Source: Planctomycetota bacterium (GTDB lineage: Bacteria > Planctomycetota > J058). Taken from it: 64,000 nucleotides of DNA. Below are positions 30,547-30,620 of this stretch, in pieces. The stretch spans positions 18,972 through 82,971 of the forward strand of contig JAMLIC010000006.1 of NCBI GenBank assembly GCA_023954375.1, read 5' to 3'. Numbering within the stretch: position 1 is the first letter of the stretch; each line of letters opens with the position of its first letter. The notes beneath the pieces are model-generated. The model had not been told where the DNA came from and did not search any database. It was given only the letters and a program-made list of their open reading frames with translations. The translations under genes were made by a program, and so were the position numbers.

Positions 30547-30593
30547 CCACGGAGGACACGGAGGTCGAGCTCCCCTCTCCGTGTCCTCCGTGG
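30547..30593 (-). terminator. putative intrinsic terminator of the MVP gene: 17-bp perfect stem (CCACGGAGGACACGGAG / CTCCGTGTCCTCCGTGG) with 13-nt loop
   Basis: Located 28 nt downstream of the MVP stop on the minus strand, followed on that strand by a U-rich tract (AAUCUUCUUGU). Built from the CACGGAGG motif also seen at 55806-55896. Confidence 0.55.
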
Positions 30594-30620
30594 CCTCCGT
30601 GGTTGGTCTCTCCTCACATG

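Follow-up and report, generated by a model that had tools for sequence, protein, structure and literature searches.

A family of tandem-unit palindromes at gene 3' ends in a Planctomycetota bacterium, other bacterial phyla and an archaeal lineage

Background

Just past the end of a gene for a protein resembling the major vault protein (MVP), the DNA of a Planctomycetota bacterium carries a palindrome, here called copy 1, whose arms are built from repeats of the octamer CACGGAGG. It lies in a 64,000-nt stretch that was analysed as a whole and is called the window below, and in which the same octamer forms a second, longer palindrome (copy 2). The question raised by this locus is what such a palindrome is, why it stands at the end of a gene and whether it is a property of this genome alone. 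An initial annotation of the window had taken the two palindromes for a genome-specific repetitive extragenic palindrome (REP) or terminator family that may also be mobile, like a miniature inverted-repeat transposable element (MITE). The reading that we favour, with moderate confidence, counts copy 1 among the members of a widespread, REP-like family of tandem-unit palindromes that occupies terminator slots and is kept symmetric at the DNA level.

Results

Structure of the two palindromes in the window

Copy 1, its flanking tail and the gene that it follows are made up as given below; GC3 is the G+C content at third codon positions.

30547-30563: arm A of copy 1, two units, C-CACGGAGG-A-CACGGAG; read from the sequence, a perfect 17-bp complement of 30577-30593
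30564-30576: loop of copy 1, 13 nt, GTCGAGCTCCCCT; from sequence and fold
30577-30593: arm B of copy 1, CTCCGTG-T-CCTCCGTG-G; from sequence and pairing
30594-30602: unpaired third unit of copy 1, CCTCCGTGG; from sequence and a scan for degenerate units
30530-30546, minus strand: tail rich in T, UGAAUCUUCUUGUACUU, with 9 U in 17 nt as read on the MVP transcript strand, directly 3' of the copy 1 stem
30621-33380, minus strand: MVP-like gene; Pfam MVP_shoulder 1.1e-19 and Vault_3 8.4e-07, GC3 0.99

Since the MVP-like gene is on the minus strand, copy 1 starts 18 nt downstream of its stop codon. The stem of copy 1 (30547-30593) is formed by CCACGGAGGACACGGAG (30547-30563) and CTCCGTGTCCTCCGTGG (30577-30593), which pair over 17 bp with no mismatch and close the 13-nt loop. 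Read on the MVP transcript strand, the third unit comes first in a row of three CACGGAGG units, so that the two sides count three units against two. Folded as minus-strand RNA in an 86-nt context, copy 1 reached -42.3 kcal/mol (z = -3.78), and 0/200 shuffled sequences were as stable; in a looser plus-strand context of 121 nt, z was only -1.85. The T-rich tail falls short of the scan criterion of at least 5 T in 8.

The second copy lies between two convergent genes:

54170-55786, plus strand: gene with an uncertain start codon, its end 19 nt ahead of copy 2
55806-55844: arm A of copy 2, four units, CACGGAGG, AACGAAGG, CACGGAGG and CACGGAGG
55845-55857: loop of copy 2, 13 nt
55858-55896: arm B of copy 2, the mirror of arm A including a variant CCTTCGT unit; the unit spacers form 1x1 mismatches
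55925-57175, minus strand: response-regulator/Ser-Thr kinase gene (Pfam), its end 28 nt from copy 2

With four units in each arm, copy 2 (55806-55896) pairs at 37/39 positions around its 13-nt loop and folds at -88.6 kcal/mol (z = -9.96; 0/200 shuffles as stable). Sequence, pairing and fold thus bear out what the initial annotation had described, namely a perfect 17-bp stem with a third unit at 30547-30602, a longer palindrome of the same motif at 55806-55896, and the location of both at gene 3' ends.

The window has a G+C content of about 76%, and frame-specific GC3 was used to tell real genes from shadow open reading frames (ORFs). The octamer occurs 11 times in the window, against 5.3 +/- 2.2 expected, a modest enrichment that was reached in 2/100 shuffles; 10 of the 11 copies fall in the dyads of copies 1 and 2. 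A chain scan of the 64 kb for degenerate units returned these two as the sole real arrays.

Distribution of the family

One genome per species, 596 Gb in all, was scanned for the pattern CACGGAGG-N1-2-CACGGAGG-N5-35-CCTCCGTG. At least 118 loci were obtained; by our own arithmetic, about 0.3 matches are expected by chance for 24 specified bases in a collection of this size. All the listed loci (at least 118) share the same hairpin design, in hosts whose G+C fraction ranges from 0.40 to 0.76. According to record titles, the listed carriers belong to at least nine bacterial phyla: Acidobacteriota, Gemmatimonadota, Pseudomonadota (Alpha-, Beta- and Gammaproteobacteria), Myxococcota, Planctomycetota, Verrucomicrobiota, Spirochaetota (Treponema), Bacteroidota and Chloroflexota. 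Two metagenome-assembled genomes (MAGs) of Thermoplasmatota, also among the listed matches, add an archaeal lineage. The Thermoplasmatota contig of locus L094 is truly archaeal, and there the element (3901-3971) stands 19 nt past the stop codon of a full-length Hef nuclease gene (NF010337, 901 bits). Cultured carriers are Bacteroides ovatus, B. finegoldii and Gemmatirosa kalamazoonensis, the last with about 10-12 copies on each megaplasmid; multi-copy MAGs among the matches listed include Flavihumibacter (at least 9 loci) and Longimicrobium (at least 7 loci). Contrary to what the initial annotation had supposed, the family is therefore not specific to one genome.

None of 5,426 complete E. coli genomes contained the pattern, which is therefore no universal sequence bias. 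It was found in only 3 of 2.9 million viral contigs, which makes phages unlikely as the main route between hosts, and a phage collection gave one match, an unverified faecal contig. No Rfam family matched the window or 10 of the loci at the gathering score; below threshold, only generic long hairpins resembling miRNA precursors appeared. Single units, double units and termini were also looked for in the literature, where only primers and unrelated sequences turned up. The CACGGAGG palindrome family has apparently not been described so far.

Anatomy of the elements

The anatomy was derived from 122 elements. Within the core CAC[G/A]GAGG, C1, A2 and C3 are conserved at 99%, G4 at 83% (otherwise mostly A), G5, A6 and G7 at 96-98% and G8 at 82%, and 15% of the units read AGAGG. 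Units follow one another with a period of about 9 nt (9-10), the spacer being mostly a single nucleotide, most often A. Three units in each arm is the commonest arrangement, with 2-4 per arm overall; the arms are equal in 78/122 elements and unequal in 44/122. The outer foot is TT[C/A]AC followed by CACGGAGG, usually as the pair TTCAC ... GTGAA. Loops are hypervariable across the family and differ even between copies within one genome. The flanks are A-rich 5' and T-rich 3' of the arms, with a T fraction of 0.41-0.45 at +10 to +13 against a background of 0.175 (about 2.5-fold). Termini are lineage-specific, CTCACACGG in Longimicrobium and CTCTCCACCACGG in Acidobacteria. Two of the Flavihumibacter copies (L083:243-282 and L099:4920-4959) have a common GTAGTAGCTAAYCTTGT motif just 5' of the element, and at approximately L015:6193-6402 a CACGGAGG palindrome is nested in a longer one with outer arms of the GCGCAAAG type.

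Placement relative to genes

Across the listed loci the median distance from the stop codon to the element is 19 nt, on gene calls that are crude, as are those behind the following counts. Sites were convergent in 31 cases, tandem in 52 and divergent in 10-11, with an excess of convergent over divergent ones (31 against 11, p = 0.003). In tandem settings the element lies nearer to the upstream stop codon in 35/52 and not in 17/52 (p = 0.018). The position at gene 3' ends that the initial annotation had noted for the two window copies thus holds for the listed loci.

Replacement and persistence at orthologous sites

The MVP-like protein is 100% identical to a protein of an NCBI MAG, 'Planctomycetes bacterium' M9894_08600. 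In two relatives with the same gene order (90% and 83% protein identity), the place of copy 1 is taken by ordinary GC-rich hairpins with U-rich tails, different from each other. The neighbouring gene and its upstream region are as follows:

28467-30260, minus strand: gene after the MVP-like gene on the same strand, called from ORF and GC3

The region upstream of this gene (about 30240-30400) is conserved in the relatives and the copy 1 hairpin is not. Judged by its position and by this exchange, copy 1 may, at even chances, stand where the MVP-like gene would have its terminator or 3'-end hairpin in this genome.

Several other features of this neighbourhood were recorded. The MVP-like protein has 348 homologues at E <= 1e-30, the named organisms being mostly Polyangia or other Myxococcota, and a protein of about 590 aa lacking a strong Pfam match is kept immediately downstream of the gene in relatives. 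The non-coding blocks at about 30240-30400 (minus strand), kept in four relatives, may represent a promoter or a leader element. A perfect 10-bp tandem repeat, CGCCCGGACC x 5.1, is present at 33430-33480, in the spacer from which the MVP-like gene and a solute-binding-protein gene diverge.

At the site of copy 2, the kinase gene product is 100% identical to a 416-aa NCBI protein, P0241. The relative with 86% kinase identity (L156) retains an orthologous, degenerate CACGGAGG palindrome with a shorter centre, so that here the element has persisted vertically while drifting. In a relative with 84% identity (L158) its place is taken by a palindrome of NAACTGA heptamers, and in a third (L159, 82%) there is no spacer at this point. 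The palindrome of L158 (1830-2070) consists of NAACTGA/TCAGTTN heptamers around a centre of about 150 nt, and its unit resembles the TAACTGA repeats of Beggiatoaceae and Cyanobacteria.

Further turnover is found in Bacteroides. The spacer between gmd and fcl has identical flanks in B. ovatus and B. finegoldii, and the whole element, arms and loop together, is inverted between them; in B. acidifaciens only a terminal remnant, TCTGTGGTGA, is left, a deletion. Dispersal within one genome is seen in a Flavihumibacter MAG, where five full copies are 84-97% identical over about 105 nt and their flanks are unrelated. Unit number, spacers and loops vary among the copies of one genome.

Symmetry of the arms

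The spacer bases are not conserved between elements, but they are mirrored between the two arms of an element: 106-112 of 198 match, against 36 +/- 4.5 after shuffling. Mismatches between arms are mostly transitions, and when they are scored on the sense strand of the gene upstream, G.U (94) and A.C (102) are about equally frequent. From the mirrored spacers together with the lack of a G.U excess we infer that the symmetry is maintained on DNA. These patterns point to arm-to-arm copying, or to birth as a perfect palindrome and later decay, as its probable routes; compensatory evolution of an RNA helix would fit them less well.

Palindromes of other units

A palindrome of another unit also occurs in the window:

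34661-34805, no strand assigned: AGCTNTT heptamer-array palindrome downstream of the solute-binding-protein gene; -96.7 kcal/mol, z = -9.66

It has a counterpart after cas4 on a plasmid of Pseudanabaena galeata (L155:1195-1370). Searched for in plasmids, AGCTNTT formed a palindrome in Pseudanabaena only, the Burkholderiaceae matches being plain direct heptamer microsatellites. In the loci that were fetched, 23 of 72 strong hairpins lacking the CACGGAGG unit have arms made of tandem 7-9-mers of other units, which suggests that short-unit palindromes form a general class here. Examples are L037:3724-3802, L076:6020-6095, L081:2662-2752, L098:1092-1166 and three sites in L106. Near-perfect hairpins lacking the CACGGAGG unit, with stems of 15-16 pairs, lie in the window at 26014-26057, 37346-37386 and 63467-63525, the latter two intergenic and at gene 3' ends. 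The window also holds a giant ORF of 4396 aa (40087-53277, minus strand; GC3 0.99).

Discussion

The gene-end family and how it might work

The reading that we favour would explain the data in three steps. An element of this kind folds into a very stable hairpin from either transcript direction and is flanked by an A-tract and a T-tract; from this we infer that it may stop transcription in both directions, act as a barrier to 3' exonucleases, or both. Its form would arise and stay symmetric on the DNA: replication slippage could alter the number of units, template switching or gene conversion inside the palindrome could copy one arm onto the other, and breakage and repair at the centre could scramble the loop. 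The family would then spread within genomes, and occasionally between distant lineages, by some further mechanism.

Hairpin-only, 'I-shaped' intrinsic terminators exist in high-GC bacteria. The CACGGAGG elements resemble intrinsic terminators in being stable, GC-rich hairpins soon after stop codons (in the window, stems of 17 bp and 37 bp at 18-28 nt), in being swapped with plain hairpins in relatives and in having a T-rich tract at copy 1 and at many other members. Intrinsic terminators, however, are not sequence families, whereas the elements described here have 13-nt loops, overlong stems, no U-tract at copy 2, and A/T tracts that are blind to orientation. Their terminator activity is suggested by position and by interchangeability with plain hairpins.

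Several observations weigh against this reading. A scan for hairpins followed by a U-tract called neither window copy, their loops being 13 nt long when short loops (3-8 nt) were the criterion, and copy 2 has no U-tract on either strand. The T content per 12 nt is 3.8 on the sense and 4.2 on the antisense side and is 4.2 at divergent sites, so that it does not depend on gene direction; being symmetric and independent of orientation, the A/T tracts look like parts of the element and not like locally selected terminator tails. In the Flavihumibacter copies the T-run lies 5' and the A-run 3', opposite to the order in a terminator, and the near-equal frequency of G.U and A.C gives no sign of selection on one RNA strand. 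The Bacteroides element sits between gmd and fcl, two genes of one pathway. To our knowledge, archaeal termination uses no hairpins. Finally, a structural role alone leaves the conservation of the 8-nt core across phyla, next to drifting spacers, unexplained. Of the REP/terminator family proposed in the initial annotation, the REP-like character, the gene-end placement and the turnover hold, and its terminator part stands on position and interchangeability, neither copy having passed the U-tract scan.

Comparison with known repeat families

The CACGGAGG family shares several traits with the REP elements, bacterial interspersed mosaic elements (BIMEs) and REPINs of Proteobacteria, which go with the REP-associated tyrosine transposases (RAYT/TnpA-REP): all are short, multi-copy extragenic palindromes just past stop codons, within transcription units or where these end, have lineage variants and often form inverted pairs. 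Roles in termination and in the stabilisation of mRNA have been suggested for REP elements, and the catalogued families are defined by a terminal tag and sorted by lineage (PMC3733652, PMC6006769). In Flavihumibacter, Longimicrobium and Gemmatirosa the CACGGAGG element is likewise a multi-copy extragenic palindrome. Its arms, however, are tandem arrays of a unit with a 9-nt period and not a single stem, and its core is shared by carriers from nine phyla and by an archaeon. The REP terminal tag GTAG or CGTC (PMC3733652) is not in the outer consensus of the family, and no RAYT was seen among 642 ORFs in the 8-kb flanks of the 118 listed loci, the search having covered the flanks only.

Cyanobacterial short tandemly repeated repetitive (STRR) heptamers are comparable short tandem repeats. 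Of the tandem arrays of GGGAATC in Xanthomonas and GGGGAYT in Nostoc, with units of about 7 nt, 70-75 per genome form convergent inverted pairs capable of a stem-loop (Rehm et al. 2015, PMC4692102). About 90% of them are intergenic, on average 28 nt away from where the ORF on their 5' side ends; their length and sequence vary among close relatives, and the same unit is found in distant phyla (PMC4692102). The CACGGAGG family shares with these inverted arrays of simple sequence repeats the convergent tandem arrangement, the intergenic position nearer to the upstream ORF end and the variation among relatives. It differs in a period of 9-10 nt (an 8-nt core plus a free spacer), in having about three units, in being almost always paired and in a far broader distribution. 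TAACTGA heptamers, common to Beggiatoaceae, Cyanobacteria and Bacteroidetes, are intergenic and have no known transfer mechanism (MacGregor 2015, PMC4679880). They too are a short tandem unit in unrelated phyla, and it is a palindrome of the related NAACTGA that replaces the CACGGAGG element in L158; TAACTGA arrays, however, are mostly direct repeats just upstream of start codons with stop codons in all frames, and the CACGGAGG unit has no such stops.

Three further candidates were compared with the family and rejected. Integron attC sites have the foot RYYYAAC ... GTTRRRY, that of the family is TTCAC ... GTGAA, and the window copies are 25 kb apart with no cassette array. The REP-like sequences of class-3 Y1 transposases came into question by their CnGA foot, unit positions 3-6 being C[G/A]GA, and the published sequences C[N]GAGCCGCGACCGTNAGGGAGCG proved unrelated. 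The parS site (TGTTTCAC-GTGAAACA) has only TTCAC/GTGAA in common with the outer foot, where positions -6 to -8 show no preference.

A possible recognition site for an agent acting in trans

A further, still tentative reading is that CAC[G/A]GAG may be the recognition site of a trans-acting agent, either a mobilising enzyme or a repeat-reading protein, that would write, copy or maintain palindromes at gene ends. Agent and sites would then have moved among at least nine bacterial phyla and Thermoplasmatota, and CACGGAGG would be the most widespread member of a wider, unnamed system of short-unit palindromes that includes the AGCTNTT, NAACTGA and GGGAATC types.

A possible mobile element

MITEs that act as terminators are known, for example the Correia elements of Neisseria; a MITE is characterised by defined inverted terminal repeats, target-site duplications and a parent insertion sequence (IS). 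The family could be a non-autonomous mobile element, MITE- or REPIN-like, cut and pasted by a transposase encoded elsewhere (HUH/Y1 or another), with CAC[G/A]GAG as its binding or cleavage site and with gene ends as the places where insertions are tolerated. We regard this as rather doubtful, although several observations agree with it: the 84-97% identical Flavihumibacter copies in unrelated flanks, the termini peculiar to Longimicrobium (CTCACACGG) and Acidobacteria (CTCTCCACCACGG), the presence, absence and opposite orientation at one Bacteroides site, the ordinary hairpin replaced at the MVP site, and a core more conserved than the spacers. Copy-specific flanks are, moreover, often palindromic, as if the element had been inserted into the apex of older hairpins, and a spread across phyla and domains calls for horizontal transfer. 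Like MITEs, the elements are small dispersed palindromes that may supply a terminator function.

The marks of transposition, on the other hand, did not appear. No target-site duplication is visible, there being no direct repeats flanking the copies. In about 0.9 Mb of flanks around the 118 listed loci neither a transposase nor any other gene recurs next to the element; the families that came up, ABC ATPases and short-chain dehydrogenases/reductases (SDRs) among them, are common ones. No IS adjoins any copy; neither MITE terminal repeats nor a parent IS were found. The MITE-like nature suggested at the outset is thus not borne out in these flanks. The element has no GTAG or CGTC tag and differs from the published REP-like sequences of class-3 Y1 transposases, its unit number, spacers and loops vary within a genome, unlike cut-and-paste copies of a master, and only 3 of the 2.9 million viral contigs carry the pattern.

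A possible binding-site array

It is unlikely that the units serve as an array to which a sequence-specific factor binds, be it an RNA titrating CsrA-type proteins or 30S subunits or a DNA bound by a repeat-reading protein. Such an array would account for a strongly conserved core between variable spacers and loops and for the same core in very different genomes, and the unit with its commonest spacer, A-CACGGAGG-A, equals the RsmE/CsrA consensus, (A/U)CANGGANG(U/A), and contains the Shine-Dalgarno core, GGAGG. The motifs are, however, buried in stems whose folding energies run from -42 to -89 kcal/mol. Both the minimum-free-energy and the centroid folds have every unit paired, so that the exposed GGA motifs of a CsrA/RsmE-titrating RNA are missing from them. 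Conservation is lowest at the two outer Gs of GGAGG (positions 4 and 8), with 15% of the units reading AGAGG, there is no strand asymmetry, and the carriers include Bacteroidota, Alpha- and Betaproteobacteria, which are not known to have CsrA, as well as an archaeon.

Weaker explanations

That the window holds a genome-specific terminator/REP family, or two chance hairpins with a common motif, would suit its mere two copies in 64 kb and the weak significance of the octamer count by itself, and is nevertheless highly improbable when at least 118 loci elsewhere match a 24-base pattern that none of 5,426 E. coli genomes contains. An artefact of assembly or library preparation (adapter or hairpin chimeras) deserves practically no credence: most matches are MAGs, and one contig (L043) carries an Illumina-adapter-like 12-mer, AGATCGGAAGAG, about 60 nt downstream of the element, but the element recurs in independent studies, in short-read assemblies (contig names k141_ and NODE_) as well as in complete isolate replicons, is consistently placed past stop codons and has orthologous copies in related genomes.

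Conclusions

If confirmed, the family would be a recognisable repeat that spans bacteria and an archaeon and has neither an Rfam family nor a match in the literature searched. It marks gene ends in many uncultured lineages of soil, freshwater and gut. Being exchangeable with ordinary terminator hairpins, it could act as a portable two-way terminator module, and it would join scattered reports of heptamer repeats from unrelated phyla into one broader class. Its main interest lies in an 8-nt core that stays constant in hosts of 40% to 76% G+C, across phyla and domains, and the cultured carriers make the question of why this core is conserved directly testable.
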